This document shows positions 15,161-50,025 of a stretch of 64,000 nt of DNA, piece by piece. The notes under the pieces were generated by a model. That model was not told the origin of the DNA, did not search any database, and saw nothing but the letters and a program-made list of their open reading frames with translations. This DNA is from Escherichia phage vB_EcoM-BECP11, in the sequence record MW286157.1, one strand, 5' to 3'. The position numbers were made by a program, and so were the translations under genes. How positions within the stretch are numbered: the stretch's first letter is position 1; every line of letters starts with the position of its first letter.

Positions 15161-16588
15161 GTGGTAGAAATTATTCTTTCTCATCTTATATTTGATCAAG
15201 CTTATTTTTCAAAAGTTTGGCCATATATGGATTCAGAATATTTTGAAAGTGGTCCAGCTAAAAATGCATTCAAATTAATTAAATCTCATGTTAATGAGTA
15301 CCATAGCGTTCCATCTATTAATGCGTTAAATGTTGCATTAGAAAATAGTTCATTTACTGAAACAGAATATTCTGGTGTAAAAACACTTATTTCAAAACTG
15401 GCTGATTCTCCGGAAGACCACAGCTGGTTAGTAAAAGAAACAGAAAAATATGTTCAGCAAAGAGCGATGTTTAATGCTACGTCTAAAATAATCGAAATTC
15501 AAACCAATGCTGAGCTTCCTCCGGAAAAACGAAATAAGAAAATGCCGGATGTTGGTGCTATTCCTGACATCATGCGCCAAGCATTATCAATTTCATTTGA
15601 TAGCTACGTCGGTCATGATTGGATGGATGACTACGAAGCACGCTGGCTATCTTATATGAATAAAGCTCGTAAAGTTCCATTTAAACTTCGTATTTTGAAT
15701 AAAATTACAAAAGGCGGAGCTGAGACTGGAACACTGAACGTTTTAATGGCTGGCGTTAACGTTGGTAAATCATTAGGATTGTGTTCATTAGCAGCAGATT
15801 ATTTACAGCTCGGACATAATGTTCTTTACATTTCCATGGAAATGGCAGAAGAAGTCTGTGCTAAGCGTATTGACGCTAACATGCTTGATGTTTCTCTTGA
15901 TGACATTGATGATGGGCATATTTCTTACGCTGAATATAAAGGAAAAATGGAAAAATGGCGTGAGAAATCTACCCTTGGTCGTTTAATCGTTAAGCAATAT
16001 CCTACTGGTGGAGCAGACGCTAATACATTTCGATCACTTTTAAATGAATTAAAGCTCAAGAAGAATTTTGTTCCAACAATCATTATTGTCGACTATCTAG
16101 GTATTTGTAAATCTTGCCGCATCAGAGTTTATTCAGAAAATAGTTACACAACTGTTAAAGCTATTGCAGAGGAATTGCGTGCTTTGGCTGTTGAAACCGA
16201 AACTGTTCTTTGGACTGCAGCACAGGTTGGTAAACAAGCTTGGGACTCTTCTGATGTTAACATGAGTGATATCGCAGAATCTGCTGGTCTTCCAGCAACA
16301 GCTGATTTTATGCTTGCGGTTATTGAAACCGAGGAGTTAGCAGCTGCTGAACAACAGCTTATTAAGCAAATCAAATCACGATATGGTGATAAGAATAAGT
16401 GGAATAAGTTTTTGATGGGTGTTCAAAAAGGAAATCAAAAATGGGTAGAAATTGAACAAGATTCTACTCCAACTGAAGTGAACGAAGTAGCAGGTTCACA
16501 ACAGATTCAGGCTGAACAGAATCGCTATCAAAGAAATGAATCCACTCGAGCTCAGTTAGATGCTTTGGCAAATGAATTAAAATTTTAG
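15161..16588 (+). CDS. 41: replicative DNA helicase gp41 (DnaB-like)
   Basis: 475 aa, GTG start, Walker A GVNVGKS; matches recalled T4 gp41. Confidence 0.95.
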   Translation: MVEIILSHLIFDQAYFSKVWPYMDSEYFESGPAKNAFKLIKSHVNEYHSVPSINALNVALENSSFTETEYSGVKTLISKLADSPEDHSWLVKETEKYVQQRAMFNATSKIIEIQTNAELPPEKRNKKMPDVGAIPDIMRQALSISFDSYVGHDWMDDYEARWLSYMNKARKVPFKLRILNKITKGGAETGTLNVLMAGVNVGKSLGLCSLAADYLQLGHNVLYISMEMAEEVCAKRIDANMLDVSLDDIDDGHISYAEYKGKMEKWREKSTLGRLIVKQYPTGGADANTFRSLLNELKLKKNFVPTIIIVDYLGICKSCRIRVYSENSYTTVKAIAEELRALAVETETVLWTAAQVGKQAWDSSDVNMSDIAESAGLPATADFMLAVIETEELAAAEQQLIKQIKSRYGDKNKWNKFLMGVQKGNQKWVEIEQDSTPTEVNEVAGSQQIQAEQNRYQRNESTRAQLDALANELKF

Positions 16589-16624
16589 TTTACAAGCTGA
16601 CAAGACTATGGTATAGTAGTCTTG
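16588..16624 (+). promoter_or_regulatory. early promoter (-35 GTTTAC 16588-16593, -10 TATAGT 16612-16617) embedded in 8 bp stem-loop caagacta/tagtcttg
   Basis: inverted repeat 16601-16608 / 16617-16624 flanks the -10 element. Confidence 0.6.
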
Positions 16625-16646
16625 TTGGTTAAATGAGGAGATTGTT

Positions 16647-16829
16647 ATGGAATTGGTAAAAGTAGTTTTTATGGGGTGGTTTAAGAACGAAAGTATGTTT
16701 ACTAAAGAAATCACAATGATGAAAGATGACGTTCAATGGGCTACTACTCAATATGCTGAAGTTAATAAAGCATTAGTTAAAGCTTTCATTGATGACAAGA
16801 AAGTATGCGAAGTGGATTGCCGAGGATAA
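16647..16829 (+). CDS. dmd: Dmd antitoxin-like protein (inhibitor of RnlA/LsoA toxins)
   Basis: 60 aa MELVKVVFMGWFKNES...; matches my recollection of T4 Dmd, adjacent to gene 41. Confidence 0.7.
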   Translation: MELVKVVFMGWFKNESMFTKEITMMKDDVQWATTQYAEVNKALVKAFIDDKKVCEVDCRG

Positions 16830-16830
16830 T

Positions 16831-17088
16831 ATGCATATTGTTTTATTTAAACCTACTCCGTATAACGTCAGGAAAAATACTCAATTCAAAGCACTTATTG
16901 CAGATACGTGGGAATTGGTGCTAGATATTCCAGCAGAAGAAAGTCCTCCATTTGGTCGAGTGGAATTTATTAAGTTTGCTGTACGTCCTACGAAGCGACA
17001 GATTCGTCAGTGTAAAAGGTATTTTCGTAAGATCGTTAAGCTAGAGAAACAGTTTGTAACATGTGATTATGCAGAAGTTTTAAAATAA
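16831..17088 (+). CDS. 61.4-like small basic protein, 85 aa
   Basis: ATG 16831 after SD gagga, 2 nt after dmd stop; basic C-terminus RPTKRQIRQCKRYFRK. Confidence 0.5.
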   Translation: MHIVLFKPTPYNVRKNTQFKALIADTWELVLDIPAEESPPFGRVEFIKFAVRPTKRQIRQCKRYFRKIVKLEKQFVTCDYAEVLK

Positions 17089-17148
17089 CTATTTACTTTT
17101 GTTGGAAATTGATATACTATATAAACATAAACTACTGAGGAGATTATC

Positions 17149-17442
17149 ATGAAAAAATTTATTTTTGCTACAATTTTTACTTTGGCTTCTTGTGCTGCTC
17201 AGCCTGCTATGGCAGGTTATGATAAAGATTTGTGTGAATGGTCTATGACTGCAGATCAGACTGAAGTTGAAACTCAAATTGAAGCGGATATTATGAATAT
17301 CGTTGAGCGTGATCGCCCCAATATGAAAGTTGAAGTACAAAAACAGCTTAAATCAGGTGGTGTGATGCAGTATAATTATGTTCTGTATTGTGACCCTAAT
17401 TTTGATAACAAAAATATCGTAACCGAAATCACAGGTGAATAA
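17149..17442 (+). CDS. sp: Spackle-like periplasmic protein
   Basis: 97 aa with signal peptide MKKFIFATIFTLASCAAQPAMA; size and position match T4 sp (61.3). Confidence 0.65.
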   Translation: MKKFIFATIFTLASCAAQPAMAGYDKDLCEWSMTADQTEVETQIEADIMNIVERDRPNMKVEVQKQLKSGGVMQYNYVLYCDPNFDNKNIVTEITGE

Positions 17443-17443
17443 T

Positions 17444-18082
17444 ATGATTTATTATATGCACAAAAATCCACCGTTTAAATACGGTAAATTTCCTGATGCA
17501 CAATGTTATAATATAACGCCTGATGAAAATAACCGTGGATATCTTATTGGCACAATTTTTGTAATTGTTAAAGATAACGAAATCGTTGCCTGGGCAGATT
17601 TTAAAGGTACAACACATGATGTTAATCCGGTGCCTTTCACATATTACAATATAATGGATTTGGCATATGATTATAATTGGTTTAATCATGACACGTTGGC
17701 TCATATTCATATTGAAGGTGTAGGATTTGACATCTCTTATTCTAGCTACTCATTGTGTCCTATGAGTCGGGCTCATAAAGAACCTGAATATTTTTCATTT
17801 AGGAAACGTGTAAACTTTAAACGCAACACAGAGTATGTCGGTGGAATCTTTGTTAAAGATAATCGAATTATTCGTATTAATTATCCTTTGAGCGTTAGTC
17901 AAAAAGATATTGATGTTGATTTAGATTTCACTGAAAATAATATTAATCATATTGCTTCTGTGTATTTTGGTATCGATCACAAAATTGTAATATGTGGATA
18001 TGAATTACCGTTTGAAGAACAGCCTAAAGTAAAAGTTTCTATTGACGATCAAATTTTTAATGCTTTTATGAATAAAGGTTAA
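17444..18082 (+). CDS. 61.2-like protein, 212 aa
   Basis: ATG 17444 right after sp stop; C-terminal tag SIDDQIFNAFMNKG shared with next gene. Confidence 0.5.
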   Translation: MIYYMHKNPPFKYGKFPDAQCYNITPDENNRGYLIGTIFVIVKDNEIVAWADFKGTTHDVNPVPFTYYNIMDLAYDYNWFNHDTLAHIHIEGVGFDISYSSYSLCPMSRAHKEPEYFSFRKRVNFKRNTEYVGGIFVKDNRIIRINYPLSVSQKDIDVDLDFTENNINHIASVYFGIDHKIVICGYELPFEEQPKVKVSIDDQIFNAFMNKG

Positions 18083-18086
18083 TATG
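18038..18086 (+). repeat. 49 nt module, copy 1 (3' end of 61.2-like gene plus RBS and start of next gene)
   Basis: tctattgacgatcaaatttttaatgcttttatgaataaaggttaatatg; second copy at 18396-18444 with 3 mismatches. Confidence 0.8.
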
Positions 18087-18440
18087 TATAGTTCTGAATT
18101 TTCATATTTAAAAATGGAAAAAATTTCATACGATTTTATAGATGAAAAGGTTTATTACAGTTTCCATGAACCACGTTTTAATAGTGAGGTTGGGTTTATT
18201 GTAGTAAAAGACAATTTCATTTTAAAGATATATTCGGCATTAAAGGATTTTCACTACGAAAATATTAACCTAAAATTTGATAAAGAAAACGTTCGTAATT
18301 GCGCAGTAACAATTACAGGAAATAAAGGCACATGTGTTATGCTATCTGATGAAATTAATGATTTGCTAAATGATGCCGAAAAGGTTGCTATTCCATCTAT
18401 TGATGACCAAATTTTTAATGCTTTTATGAATAGAGGTTAA
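18084..18440 (+). CDS. 61.1-like protein, 118 aa
   Basis: ends with SIDDQIFNAFMNRG, same tag as upstream gene. Confidence 0.5.
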   Translation: MYSSEFSYLKMEKISYDFIDEKVYYSFHEPRFNSEVGFIVVKDNFILKIYSALKDFHYENINLKFDKENVRNCAVTITGNKGTCVMLSDEINDLLNDAEKVAIPSIDDQIFNAFMNRG

Positions 18441-18444
18441 TATG
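18396..18444 (+). repeat. 49 nt module, copy 2
   Basis: tctattgatgaccaaatttttaatgcttttatgaatagaggttaatatg. Confidence 0.8.
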
Positions 18445-18606
18445 AAAACATATAAAGAATTTATTAAAGAAGATATGGTAGCTGGAGATTCAGGTGGTAA
18501 TCCTGAAAATATCTCTACTGGAACAACGTCGGGCGCTGTAGTAAATAAAGGTCCTGAACAGATTCCTAAAAAGAAAAAAGAGGAATCTAAAGAAAAAGAA
18601 GAGTAA
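18442..18606 (+). CDS. 54 aa Lys/Glu-rich peptide
   Basis: ATG 18442 inside repeat copy 2; stop 2 nt before gene 61 ATG; low complexity C-terminus. Confidence 0.35.
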   Translation: MKTYKEFIKEDMVAGDSGGNPENISTGTTSGAVVNKGPEQIPKKKKEESKEKEE

Positions 18607-18608
18607 AA

Positions 18609-19637
18609 ATGTCATCAATACCTTGGATTGATAATGAGTTTGCGTATCGTGCATTAGCTCATTTACCTAAATTCACACAAGTAAATAATAGTTCAACTTT
18701 TAAATTACGGTTTAGATGCCCTGTTTGTGGAGATTCAAAAACCGATCAGAATAAAGCCCGTGGATGGTATTACGGTGATAATAATGAAGGAAATATTCAT
18801 TGTTATAACTGTAACTATCATGCACCAATCGGAATATATTTAAAGGAGTTTGAACCTGATTTATATCGTGAGTATATCTTTGAAATAAGAAAAGAAAAAG
18901 GTAAAAGTCGTCCAGTAGAAAAACCTAAAGAACTTCCTAAACATCCTGAGAAGAAAATAATTAAATCTCTTCCGTCATGTGTTAGATTAGATAAACTGGT
19001 GGAAGACCATCCAATTATAAAATATGTAAAAGCTCGTTGTATTCCAAAGGATAAATGGAAATATCTTTGGTTTACAACCGAATGGCCTAAATTAGTTAAT
19101 AGCATAGCACCGGGAACATACAAAAAGGAAATTTCTGAGCCTCGTCTTGTTATTCCAATTTATAATGCTAATGGAAAAGCCGAGTCGTTTCAAGGGCGTG
19201 CATTAAAGAAAGATGCTCCTCAAAAATATATCACCATCAAAGCTTATCCTGAGGCAACAAAAATATATGGAGTCGAACGAGTTAAAGATGGTGATGTATA
19301 TGTTTTAGAAGGACCTATAGATTCACTTTTTATTGAAAATGGTATAGCTATTACGGGTGGTCAATTAGACCTAGAAGTTGTTCCATTTAAAGATAGGCGT
19401 GTGTGGGTCTTAGATAATGAACCTCGTCATCCTGACACTATTAAGCGAATGACTAAATTAGTTGATGCAGGAGAAAGGGTTATGTTTTGGGATAAATCTC
19501 CCTGGAAATCAAAAGATGTTAATGATATGATTAGAAAGGAAGGTGCAACCCCTGAACAAATTATGGAATATATGAAAAATAATATTGCCCAGGGGTTGAT
19601 GGCTAAAATGCGGTTATCTAAATATGCTAAGATTTAA
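18609..19637 (+). CDS. 61: DNA primase gp61
   Basis: 342 aa; zinc ribbon CPVCGDS...CYNC; Toprim-like core; size equals T4 gp61. Confidence 0.9.
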   Translation: MSSIPWIDNEFAYRALAHLPKFTQVNNSSTFKLRFRCPVCGDSKTDQNKARGWYYGDNNEGNIHCYNCNYHAPIGIYLKEFEPDLYREYIFEIRKEKGKSRPVEKPKELPKHPEKKIIKSLPSCVRLDKLVEDHPIIKYVKARCIPKDKWKYLWFTTEWPKLVNSIAPGTYKKEISEPRLVIPIYNANGKAESFQGRALKKDAPQKYITIKAYPEATKIYGVERVKDGDVYVLEGPIDSLFIENGIAITGGQLDLEVVPFKDRRVWVLDNEPRHPDTIKRMTKLVDAGERVMFWDKSPWKSKDVNDMIRKEGATPEQIMEYMKNNIAQGLMAKMRLSKYAKI

Positions 19638-19834
19638 ATTAACCCAACTAAAGCAAATGCTAAATCTACAAATGTATCAAGAGTAACTACTGGAATATTA
19701 ACACCATGTGCAATTGCAATTGGTGATAAAATAAAGTTCCAGAGTAAAATTCCTACCATAGCAGAAATAGTAAAAGCTATACGTTTCTTATTACCTTTGA
19801 TGGCATTAACAAGTGCCATTAATTTTTGTACCAT
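19634..19834 (-). CDS. 66 aa predicted membrane protein, antisense to flanking early genes
   Basis: strong SD aaggagg 4 nt before ATG on minus strand; two hydrophobic segments; convergent with gene 61. Confidence 0.35.
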   Translation of the reverse strand: MVQKLMALVNAIKGNKKRIAFTISAMVGILLWNFILSPIAIAHGVNIPVVTLDTFVDLAFALVGLI

Positions 19835-19847
19835 ATGTCCTCCTTAT

Positions 19848-19871
19848 TGCTTTATATATTTATTGTATAAT
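19848..19871 (+). promoter_or_regulatory. middle-type promoter: TGCTTTA, 11 nt, TATAAT
   Basis: tgcttta 19848-19854, tataat 19866-19871, 35 nt upstream of gene 56 ATG. Confidence 0.5.
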
Positions 19872-19905
19872 TAATCTACTAACCCATGAATTGAAAGGAA
19901 AAATA

Positions 19906-20424
19906 ATGGCTTACTTTAACGAATGTTCACAACTGATTGAAGGCGCTGATAAAGCTCAAAATGAATATTGGGATATTCTCGGTGATGAAAAAGACCCGCT
20001 GCAAGTTATGCTTGATATGCAGAAATCTTTACAGGTTCGTTTAGCTAAAGATAAACCTGAATATAACCGTCATCCTGATGATTTGGCTACTGCAGGTGAA
20101 GTTGTTGATTGGATGCGTAATCAGAAAGATTATATTGATGATGAATTCCGCGAACTTCTGACTTCTCTTGGTGGTATGAGCAATGGTGAAAAAGATGCAT
20201 CTGCTGTATGGAAACCTTGGAAGTCGCAGCATGGTGAACGTCGTGAAACTCTGATTACTGATTTGTCTCCACAAGACCAACTGGAAATTAAATTTGAAAT
20301 GATTGATATTCTCCATTTCGTTCTGAATATGTTCCAAGGTCTTGGTCTTACAGCAGAAGAAATCTTTAAACTTTATTACCTGAAAAATGCTGAAAATTTC
20401 GCACGTCAAGACCGAGGTTATTAA
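19906..20424 (+). CDS. 56: dCTP pyrophosphatase gp56 (MazG-like)
   Basis: 172 aa from ATG 19906; EEFRELL...KLYYLKNAENFARQDRGY resembles recalled T4 gp56. Confidence 0.75.
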   Translation: MAYFNECSQLIEGADKAQNEYWDILGDEKDPLQVMLDMQKSLQVRLAKDKPEYNRHPDDLATAGEVVDWMRNQKDYIDDEFRELLTSLGGMSNGEKDASAVWKPWKSQHGERRETLITDLSPQDQLEIKFEMIDILHFVLNMFQGLGLTAEEIFKLYYLKNAENFARQDRGY

Positions 20425-20564
20425 TGTCTCGTTTAAATAAACGTCAACTCAAAAAGTTGAATAAGAAAAGGGCGAAAGCCCTTACTGCTTTATTACGTAA
20501 TGAAATAACTAAAGAAATAGACCAAGAGATTATTGAACAACTCTGGAAAGCCGCTAAATTATAA
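20424..20564 (+). CDS. 46 aa basic peptide
   Basis: ATG overlaps gene 56 stop; contains internal hairpin agggcgaaagccct; may be non-coding. Confidence 0.3.
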   Translation: MSRLNKRQLKKLNKKRAKALTALLRNEITKEIDQEIIEQLWKAAKL

Positions 20565-20605: not shown

Positions 20606-20842
20606 ATGGGTGGTTTCGTTAACATCAAGACCTTTACTCATCCAGCAGGTGAAGGCAAAGAAGTTAAAGGTATGGAAGTTTCTGTTCCATTTGAAATCTA
20701 TTCTAACGAGCATCGTATTGCAGATTCTCATTATCAGACCTTTCCTTCTGAAAAGGCGGCATATTCTACTGTAGTTTCTGATGCAGCTGACTGGAAAACT
20801 AAGAATGCTGCGATGTTTACACCTACAGAAATAGGTGGTTAA
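20606..20842 (+). CDS. soc: small outer capsid protein Soc
   Basis: 78 aa; motif HYQTFPSEKAAYSTV as recalled for T4 Soc. Confidence 0.75.
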   Translation: MGGFVNIKTFTHPAGEGKEVKGMEVSVPFEIYSNEHRIADSHYQTFPSEKAAYSTVVSDAADWKTKNAAMFTPTEIGG

Positions 20843-44532: not shown

Positions 44533-45189
44533 TTATTTAGCCCTTCCTAATATTCTGGCCGCCTGAGCACATATTGATTCAAGGCGGTCATTACTTATAT
44601 GATCATTTCTATACCAGTACATGGTTATTGTTCCAGCATAGATATTATCCAAATTAAAATATGGACAACTGTACATGTAGTTTATTTCGGGAGTAGGCTT
44701 TTTAGTTGGTAAAAAAGCAAATTTTGAGTTGGAATAATAATGACGTCCATTTAAATGAACTGCATATTCATCCATAGTTTTATCAACAGGATATCCTCCA
44801 AGTGATTTTTCACTTATTGTTGAAGGTAATTTTCCTTCATATGCTATAATATCAACAAAATAGTTTAAGTTTTTAGGGCGGAAAGAATACACCGCACTAA
44901 AGTCTGCCTCAGATGATATGTGAACTATCTGGAGTTGTTCCAGGGCGACAGATTCAAAGCGTGCATTTCTTTCCTTTTCAATAATTTCACTGTATGTTTC
45001 ATACTTTGATTGCTTATAGTACTCAAAGAAACTATCTCCCCTATACCAAACAATCGCCATCATAAACAAAAGAATTACGACAGCTACCCGGGAAGCAAGA
45101 ACTTTCCCGGTAGCGTTATCTTTGAACAAGCGATCTAGAACACCAAATAGAATATCAGAGGGCGAAAATGATATTCTAGGTGCTGCCAT
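44533..45189 (-). CDS. t: holin T
   Basis: 218 aa, N-terminal TM segment then large periplasmic domain; size and position (between asiA and 38) as in T4. Confidence 0.85.
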   Translation of the reverse strand: MAAPRISFSPSDILFGVLDRLFKDNATGKVLASRVAVVILLFMMAIVWYRGDSFFEYYKQSKYETYSEIIEKERNARFESVALEQLQIVHISSEADFSAVYSFRPKNLNYFVDIIAYEGKLPSTISEKSLGGYPVDKTMDEYAVHLNGRHYYSNSKFAFLPTKKPTPEINYMYSCPYFNLDNIYAGTITMYWYRNDHISNDRLESICAQAARILGRAK

Positions 45190-49368: not shown

Positions 49369-50025
49369 TTAATAATAGCCGAAATCTTGAACAGAATCCT
49401 TAATTACGATTTGGTCAAATCGCGGAACATGCGAGGGTTGAGATGCAGGATTCTGTGAAAAAAGGTTTGGCGCAGTTAAATTTCCTGTCATAGTGTCTCC
49501 AGAGCGTAATACTCTAGAGTTTACATTTGTTGTAACAATATTTATTGCTCCATCAACATAATCTTTTCTCGTAAGGTCATAATTATTTACTGGTGATAAC
49601 GAAGTTGCGCGTATTTGTGATGCTTCAATTACACCCTTTGAGCTAATATCTCCGTTTCGTGTGTTAATTACTACAGTTCTACCTGCTGCCCCTTGTGATG
49701 ATTTAAAGCCGATACCATACCATGAAACAATATCCATATTTGTAGTATCATATGTGGCATTATCACCAGGACCGGCAAAAATACCGTTGTCACCTGACCC
49801 AGCACCAGGAACAGTCATTCCTTTATTAAAAATTACTTTATTTAAATATGTACCACCATTAGCTTTAGAAACGAAATCGTTATCAGCAGCTTGTGGTTTA
49901 TTATATTCTGAATATATTTTAAATGATTTATAGAGTACATCGTCACCGGCTGGATTCAATGGAAAATTTCCTTGATGCCAAATGACAGAGCCTCCAGTTG
50001 TTGAACCTACTTTTAAATCAGCCAT
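49369..50025 (-). CDS. 36: long tail fibre distal connector gp36
   Basis: 218 aa, position between 35 and 37. Confidence 0.8.
   Translation of the reverse strand: MADLKVGSTTGGSVIWHQGNFPLNPAGDDVLYKSFKIYSEYNKPQAADNDFVSKANGGTYLNKVIFNKGMTVPGAGSGDNGIFAGPGDNATYDTTNMDIVSWYGIGFKSSQGAAGRTVVINTRNGDISSKGVIEASQIRATSLSPVNNYDLTRKDYVDGAINIVTTNVNSRVLRSGDTMTGNLTAPNLFSQNPASQPSHVPRFDQIVIKDSVQDFGYY

Follow-up and report, generated by a model that had tools for sequence, protein, structure and literature searches.

A conserved antisense gene for a predicted small membrane protein beside primase gene 61 of T-even phages, independent of dam and probably expressed late

Does a small antisense open reading frame (ORF) between the DNA primase gene 61 and the dCTP pyrophosphatase (dCTPase) gene 56 of a T-even phage take the place of the methyltransferase gene dam, which T4 carries in this interval, or is it a gene in its own right, and what may its product do? 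The question is raised by a 64-kb segment of a Tequatrovirus genome, from Escherichia phage vB_EcoM-BECP11 (MW286157.1; hereafter the window), in which an ORF of 66 amino acids (aa) lies on the minus strand at 19634-19834 (stop included). A first-pass annotation of this DNA had described the ORF as an unusual occupant of the dam slot, present there instead of a methyltransferase, and had proposed a toxin, a holin-like protein or an exclusion factor as its product. The finding as posed is explained and ordinary, the ORF being a hypothetical gene of T-even phages that is probably expressed late.

Over window positions 18600-20500, identity is 99.9% to Escherichia phage ECML-363 and 97-98% to wV7-type phages. 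The identities of genes 61 and 56 are taken from the annotation of ECML-363, which lists, in order, DNA primase (gene 61), a hypothetical protein on the minus strand (ECML363_000024) and dCTP pyrophosphatase (gene 56). Searches with tblastn recovered the ORF from 692-749 phage records, always adjoining the primase gene, and its frame is intact in 686 of 692 records. The carriers belong to five genera (Tequatrovirus, Mosigvirus, Gaprivervirus, Karamvirus and Dhakavirus-type phages), and hundreds of Tequatrovirus records hold the ORF at 97-100% identity, in the position and orientation that it has in the window. An arrangement shared by about 750 phage records is ordinary within this group, and not unusual as first supposed.

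The pattern of change within the ORF is that of a coding sequence. Despite amino acid identities of 44-55% between genera, where synonymous sites are near saturation, the length is constant at 65-66 aa, with one single-codon indel. Pairwise ratios of nonsynonymous to synonymous change (dN/dS) are 0.1-0.5, and the variable alignment columns fall on codon positions 1, 2 and 3 in the numbers 45, 21 and 57, second positions being the most conserved. The invariant residues include W32, N33, F34, P38, G44, P48, V56, D57, A61, G64 and L65, and the family profile phrog_2024 is matched with E=1.5e-31, residues 2-66 aligning with profile positions 1-65 of 65. The length of the ORF is no evidence by itself, as many longer spurious antisense ORFs appear in the list made for the window; it is because of its conservation that it stands above chance. 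On this comparative evidence the ORF is a bona fide protein-coding gene, under purifying selection and syntenic beside the primase gene in five genera, and the idea of a real gene for a small membrane protein is upheld as far as the gene is concerned, the membrane nature of the product being predicted.

It could be argued that a chance ORF had been caught in a conserved non-coding regulatory spacer that contains the terminator of gene 61, the promoter of gene 56 and origin-proximal sequences. AT-rich phage DNA yields many antisense ORFs of such size, and the region does contain a promoter and a terminator-like hairpin, the latter lying on the plus strand at 19797-19822, 3' of gene 61 and within codons 4-12 of the ORF, and being followed by TTTTTG. 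The hairpin, however, is found in Tequatrovirus and not in Mosigvirus or Gaprivervirus, although the protein is kept there, and as a Tequatrovirus-specific element it was rejected as the conserved function of the region. A chance ORF is also at variance with a frame intact in about 700 genomes of five genera, with codon periodicity, with dN/dS below 1 and with the existence of homologues in bacterial prophages; the comparative data effectively refute this explanation, which we consider very improbable.

The gene is already known in databases, as phrog_2024 and, under the label 'hypothetical protein', in the annotation of hundreds of genomes (e.g., RB32ORF030w). It is unannotated in the T4 RefSeq record NC_000866 and in several other T4 records; the T4 reference thus omits a conserved gene, and studies based on annotated genes skip it. 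In our search of the literature, no paper naming or characterising the 66-aa ORF came up. The label 'putative head morphogenesis protein', given to the ORF in the T6 RefSeq record, was dismissed as transferred noise, a note in the same record likening the dCTPase gene to 'ferredoxin'. In T6 (locus L006, NC_054907), ATT replaces the first ATG, so that translation would start at ATT or at Met6, and a 61-aa product is annotated in that record.

The relation of the ORF to dam can be read from T4 itself. The gene order 61-dam-56, given for T4 in the first-pass annotation, is correct: NC_000866 has gene 61 at 17935-18963, dam at 16846-17625 and gene 56 at 16270-16785, all on the counter-clockwise strand. 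The 309 bp between 61 and dam, left unannotated in T4, contain this ORF as well (97% identical), at 17738-17938, with a stop overlap with gene 61 like that in the window and with GGAGGA as ribosome-binding site. The ORF therefore does not stand in for the methyltransferase gene, and T6, the RB32-type phages, Mosigvirus (JK42, phiC120) and Gaprivervirus (TH40), which have no dam here, keep the order 61-ORF-56. ORF and dam stand side by side in T4, in OE5505 and in the IMG/VR loci L011 and L012, with an extra 186-aa gene between them in OE5505 and L011, and in phage H27 a mobile endonuclease is found in the interval between the ORF and gene 56.

A genome-wide search for Dam had been suggested along with the original claim, and its outcome agrees with the absence of the gene. 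With T4 Dam as query, tblastn gave no match at E<=1 within the 64 kb of the window, nor elsewhere in ECML-363 (another 103 kb), the nearest complete relative, which stands in for the rest of the genome. A search for DPPY-type motifs ([DNS]PP[YFW]) in ORFs of at least 150 aa returned NPPF in the 61.2-like ORF and DPPF near the end of a neck-protein gene, and no plausible methyltransferase. A T4-type Dam (at least 90% identity) is present in 182 phage records and the ORF, at the same threshold, in about 502, dam co-occurring with the ORF in only about one-third of the Tequatrovirus records.

Taken from these gene orders, dam is an optional cassette between the 66-aa ORF and gene 56, absent from the lineage of the window's phage; its position in window coordinates would be between 19846 and gene 56. 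Its presence or absence is an ordinary polymorphism of T-even phages. Because T4 has both genes, and because genera without dam carry the ORF in the same place, the ORF is independent of dam and not its substitute; the two have their genomic neighbourhood alone in common, and no homology. The idea that the ORF is cargo that displaced dam, such as a toxin or exclusion gene gained in exchange for the methyltransferase, would suit a phage that has the ORF and lacks dam, as the window's phage does. It is refuted by the co-occurrence in T4, with OE5505, L011 and L012 as further cases of adjoining genes, and it does not account for the genera in which the ORF holds its place with no dam beside it; we give it a vanishingly small probability.

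The side of the ORF that faces gene 56 is also variable in another respect. In phages that match the window at 97-99% identity in both gp61 and the ORF (comparison with loci L001, L006 and L008-L017), the dCTPase encoded by gene 56 (gp56; 19907-20424, plus strand, ATG at 19907) is only 45-87% identical to that of the window, with values of 56% for T4 and 48% for T6. With such divergence beside a nearly identical gp61 and ORF, a sharp mosaic junction lies in the intergenic region between the ORF and gene 56, the same site at which other phages insert dam, the 186-aa gene or the mobile endonuclease.

When would such a gene be expressed? The features that had been read from the window at first sight are all present: an antisense 66-aa ORF with an AAGGAGG Shine-Dalgarno sequence and two hydrophobic segments, convergent with gene 61 (18609-19637, plus strand, 342 aa), in a gap between genes 61 and 56 that had been put at 270 bp and measures 269 bp. 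The stops of the ORF and of gene 61 share the palindrome TTAA, which produces a 4-nt convergent overlap. This overlap is not a conserved feature of the family, since in Gaprivervirus (L004, L013, L014 and L017) the ORF stops 120-210 nt short of the primase stop. The Shine-Dalgarno sequence (19839-19845, minus strand; cctcctt on the plus strand) lies 4 nt before the ATG, and AGGAGG or AAGGAG is kept in all lineages.

Upstream of it, at 19857-19864 on the minus strand and 22 nt from the ATG, we identified the putative late-promoter box AATAAATA, with a predicted transcription start near 19851. It fits the TATAAATA-type box of T4 late genes, at -13 to -6 and right upstream on the transcribed strand, as its A(-13) variant. 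In T4, A replaces T at -13 in 9 of 50 listed late promoters and is the commonest variant there (PMC2988020), and in a comparison of five T4-like genomes T(-13) was found to be poorly conserved, A or T being common at this position (PMC1524935). The ATAAATA core is located 16-22 nt upstream of the ORF start in every lineage examined (Tequatrovirus, Mosigvirus and Gaprivervirus), with different flanks: the box reads AATAAATA in RB32/T6-type phages and in Mosigvirus, GATAAATA in T4 (at NC_000866 17709-17716) and CATAAATA in Gaprivervirus.

The heptamer ATAAATA is fourfold depleted in the window, with 10 copies on both strands against 38+-6 expected, a count as low as this being reached in none of 100 shuffles; the full TATAAATA occurs in 4 copies, against 9.5 expected. 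Five heptamers lie on the minus strand, of which four precede gene 34, gene 36, the holin gene t and the ORF under study, and the fifth, at 49545, has no clear gene start downstream. Outside real late promoters the heptamer is seemingly avoided; examples of such promoters lie upstream of soc (20567), t (45214), 36 (50055) and 34 (55122), genes 34 and 36 being what we take, from recognition of their N-termini, to be tail-fibre genes. The ORF resembles t (44533-45189, minus strand, confirmed by a match to PF11031 with E=6e-117) in its upstream layout: the promoter sequence of t reads AATAAATAtccttaaaaggagggtctATG and that of the ORF AATAAATAtataaagcaataaggaggacatATG, both genes showing AATAAATAT, followed by about 10 nt, AAGGAGG and ATG, and both lying on the clockwise strand.

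Strand is informative in itself, the minus strand of the window being the clockwise strand of T4. According to a review of T4 late transcription, early and middle transcripts are all counter-clockwise and only late ones occur in either polarity (PMC2988020). Upstream of the ORF, no MotA box is visible on the minus strand and no convincing sigma-70 promoter was found there, a 9/12 match 225 nt away, inside gene 56, being the sole candidate. Because of the conserved ATAAATA core, the depletion of the heptamer, the layout shared with t and the missing sigma-70 site on this strand, we consider it likely that the ORF is transcribed late and in a gp55-dependent manner, the forms GATAAATA of T4 and CATAAATA of Gaprivervirus, which are rarer late-box variants, counting against this. 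The gp55 late RNA polymerase would start at the (A/G/C)ATAAATA box and produce a leader of about 17 nt carrying the strong ribosome-binding site, from which the ORF would be translated. It would then be a rare clockwise, apparently late gene inside an early block of replication genes.

An exclusion factor or an early toxin is disfavoured for the same gene because it is on the late (clockwise) strand behind a putative late-promoter box. A type I toxin of the Hok/Ldr kind, or early exclusion as by Imm or Sp, would call for an early or constitutive promoter on the strand of the ORF, and the toxin also for a cis-antisense RNA regulator; apart from the 9/12 match inside gene 56, a search for such a promoter gave nothing. 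Among the roles proposed at first, these two lose ground in this way, and the holin-like one gains weakly, through the distant prophage relatives considered below.

The overlap with a MotA-box middle promoter, pointed out in the first-pass annotation, is borne out. The plus-strand promoter of gene 56 (MotA box TTGCTTTA at 19847-19854, -10 element TATAAT at 19866-19871) is real by homology, aligning with T4 P(M)16.53 as annotated in X01416; what it overlaps is the 5' leader and promoter of the ORF, not the coding sequence. In the window, the ORF has its late box on the opposite strand within the 11-nt spacer of this middle promoter, and such nesting is a property of the phages without dam. In T4, dam separates the two promoters, yet an ATAAATA is still found equally far from the ORF.

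As the late box is directed into gene 61, the main function could be sought in the transcript itself, that is, in a late antisense RNA running into 61, 61.1, 61.2 and sp, which would silence or destabilise early mRNAs, with the ORF being secondary or stabilising. Neither strand of 17000-19700 yielded a terminator-like site that would stop such a transcript, and differential RNA sequencing of T4 reports 150 start sites, of which 22 are antisense (bioRxiv 10.1101/2024.04.04.588121). Conservation, however, tracks the reading frame, with amino acid motifs maintained at 44-55% identity under nearly saturated synonymous change; a strong Shine-Dalgarno sequence and an ATG are retained in every lineage; the overlap with gene 61 is absent in Gaprivervirus; and a scan of the region against Rfam returned no matching family. 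A role at the RNA level cannot account for the conservation of amino acids, and we regard this explanation as unlikely.

If the amino acid sequence is what is conserved, the nature of the protein deserves attention. Two stretches, residues 18-45 and 45-66, are hydrophobic on the Kyte-Doolittle scale, with values of at least 1.6 in 19-residue windows. An AlphaFold2 model, computed from a 42-sequence alignment (mean pLDDT 77.8), comprises helices at residues 2-12 and 16-42 (27 residues), a loop and a helix at 52-62. In this model the N-terminal helix is basic and amphipathic, the transmembrane (TM) helix, approximately at residues 16-42, is long, and the C-terminal helix is short and hydrophobic with conserved acidic residues; the C-terminal sequence, ...AFALVGLI, is free of a charged tail. 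The product looks like a small inner-membrane protein, its insertion being a prediction, and we infer an N-in orientation because the cluster KGNKKR precedes the long helix (positive-inside rule).

A link to a holin family comes through distant relatives of this protein. PF11351 is the family GTA_holin_3TM, described in Pfam as 'holin of 3TMs, for gene-transfer release', and we take it to include the gene transfer agent (GTA) holin of Rhodobacter capsulatus. A 92-aa relative, encoded on a Yersinia prophage-like contig of IMG/VR (L018), matches phrog_2024 with E=8e-13 and PF11351 with 24.8 bits, exactly the gathering cut-off of the latter. It belongs to a family of about 96 aa (P0038-P0171) present in Yersinia, Serratia, Pectobacterium, Klebsiella, E. 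coli and Pantoea, 15 of 30 members of which match PF11351 at E<0.01, the other scores shown being 12-18 bits; the five matches for which coordinates are shown cover a similar region of the profile, from 39-50 to 114-117 of 123 positions. Aligned with hhalign, the T4-type family (alignment A1) and the ~96-aa family (A2) correspond over the whole hydrophobic half with a probability of 97.5% (E=5e-12), reversed and 20 column-shuffled controls all remaining at or below 0.7%.

The prophage proteins have in common with the phage protein an N-terminal L..IK.G, the pattern W-N-[FY]-x4-P-x5-G-x3-P-x2-[PTA]-[LF]-[DE] in the hydrophobic half and a final L-x-G. They differ from it by about 30 inserted hydrophilic residues (...NSHEQNxITLEETRKGFTWRQ...), which the phage protein is without, and by the location of their genes, which lie terminally in prophage-like elements (about 20-35 kb) and not beside a primase gene. 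The matches to PF11351 in half of these relatives are weak and, where coordinates are shown, include the hydrophilic segment before the TM helices; the segment that contributes most of the Pfam signal is missing from the T4-type protein. Both families occur solely in Enterobacterales phages and prophages; the 96-aa protein is present in just 2 of 5426 complete E. coli genomes and gave no tblastn match at E<=1e-3 in sequenced phage genomes.

An exhaustive phmmer search of 1.84 billion representatives returned family members and, in addition, three long repetitive proteins (P0032, P0036 and P0037), which we rejected as repeat or low-complexity artefacts and not homologues. Foldseek recovered nothing but family members from BFVD, one of which bears the submitter name 'Holin', a name that we do not treat as evidence. 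When the combined alignment A3 served as the profile, the best 120 of 194 matches included no PF11351-annotated protein. The experimentally studied holin TeaA of phage ICP1 has been placed in PF11351 by remote homology (PMC7182436); hhalign against TeaA gave nothing for either of the two families, but TeaA itself has no PF11351 match by hmmscan, so that this negative carries no information.

In the prophage and tailocin-like elements, the ~96-aa gene belongs to a conserved run of four genes (L019-L022 in Enterobacteriaceae, L018 and L026 in Yersinia), coding for a GIY-YIG-like protein of ~149 aa, two proteins of ~186 and ~103 aa with no family match, and the 96-aa membrane protein. The run is situated at the edge of the element, near a lysozyme gene and a gene for an 88-aa protein with a TM segment and a coiled coil.

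We propose tentatively that the phage protein is a shortened, divergent relative of the ~96-aa enterobacterial prophage family, which itself borders on GTA_holin_3TM, and that it would act late at the inner membrane as a lysis accessory, for instance as a holin-like or holin-modulating oligomer, in which the conserved W-N-F, P, H-G, P and D..VD residues would be used. This reading of the protein is possible rather than probable, and a lysis-related role as such is weakly supported. Joined to the conserved gene, its late expression and its independence of dam, it makes up what we consider the best overall explanation, one that we place slightly short of evenly balanced. The phage protein resembles this holin family in being a small membrane protein, borne by a phage and likely late.

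Several observations weigh against a lysis accessory of this kind. Pfam and NCBIfam scans of the ORF product and of T4-type homologues returned nothing, and the window protein and five other T4-type members gave no match to PF11351 even at E<=10, so that the link of the T4-type protein to the holin family is weak, being transitive and borderline. PF11351 has three TM segments, against two hydrophobic segments in the phage protein, namely one long TM helix and an 11-residue C-terminal helix in the model. Canonical small holins (class II-type) have two TM segments and a highly charged hydrophilic C-terminal tail; the two hydrophobic segments are present here, whereas the charged tail is absent. 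The ORF does not adjoin an endolysin gene, a point of little weight in a phage group in which, as in T4, lysis genes are scattered, and the ~96-aa gene, last of its four-gene run, has the lysozyme gene about 1.4 kb off on the other strand, which is suggestive but not a lysis cassette in any clear form. Finally, T4 t-null mutants are not known to lyse, which means that the 66-aa protein cannot be a sufficient stand-alone holin.

The main holin is T, not the 66-aa protein. T (PF11031) has 218 aa, with one TM segment and a large periplasmic domain, and shows no sequence similarity to the 66-aa protein, the two having in common the inner membrane as their location, predicted in the case of the ORF product. 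A more specific form of the proposal, in which the ORF would encode a late inner-membrane protein of holin ancestry in T-even phages including T4, acting with or on T to tune the timing or inhibition of lysis, we find rather doubtful. Dual-start control, as known for holin and antiholin pairs, would fit with the two in-frame starts of Tequatrovirus, by analogy: the second ATG, Met6 (N-terminus M1-V-Q-K-L-M6), is restricted to this genus and is buried in the ORF mRNA by the stem of the hairpin at 19797-19822. A second feature that would fit is a late transcript extending, in antisense, into the primase gene. The holin-family link, weak as it is, offers a cheap hypothesis on an extra player in T4 lysis, a classic system.

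A real late membrane protein may equally have a job unrelated to lysis, such as late assembly at the inner membrane, the countering of a membrane-associated defence of the host, or a late effect on the physiology of the host envelope. Whatever speaks for a conserved late membrane protein supports this reading just as well, the holin link being transitive and borderline, and the confinement of both families to Enterobacterales phages and prophages is compatible with a host-specific membrane target. On the other hand, the sole family similarity found points to a holin Pfam, the promoter and ribosome-binding site are laid out as in holin t, and no other domain or partner is indicated. We hold a non-lysis membrane role to be about equally likely as the holin-related accessory, each being possible without being favoured.

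The surroundings of the locus show further differences from T4. Upstream of gene 61, the 61.2-like ORF of 215 aa (17435-18082, plus strand) and the following ORF of 118 aa (18084-18440, plus strand) are paralogues, sharing an internal '...VKDN.I...' and the end '...SIDDQIFNAFMN(K/R)G'; T4 has a single gene (61.2) there, and the window's phage, like RB32, has an extra, partial duplicate. Directly after gene 56, a lysine-rich ORF of 46 aa (20424-20564, plus strand) stands where T4 has the homing endonuclease gene segF, another presence/absence polymorphism relative to T4, and is followed by soc (20606-20842) behind a perfect TATAAATA.

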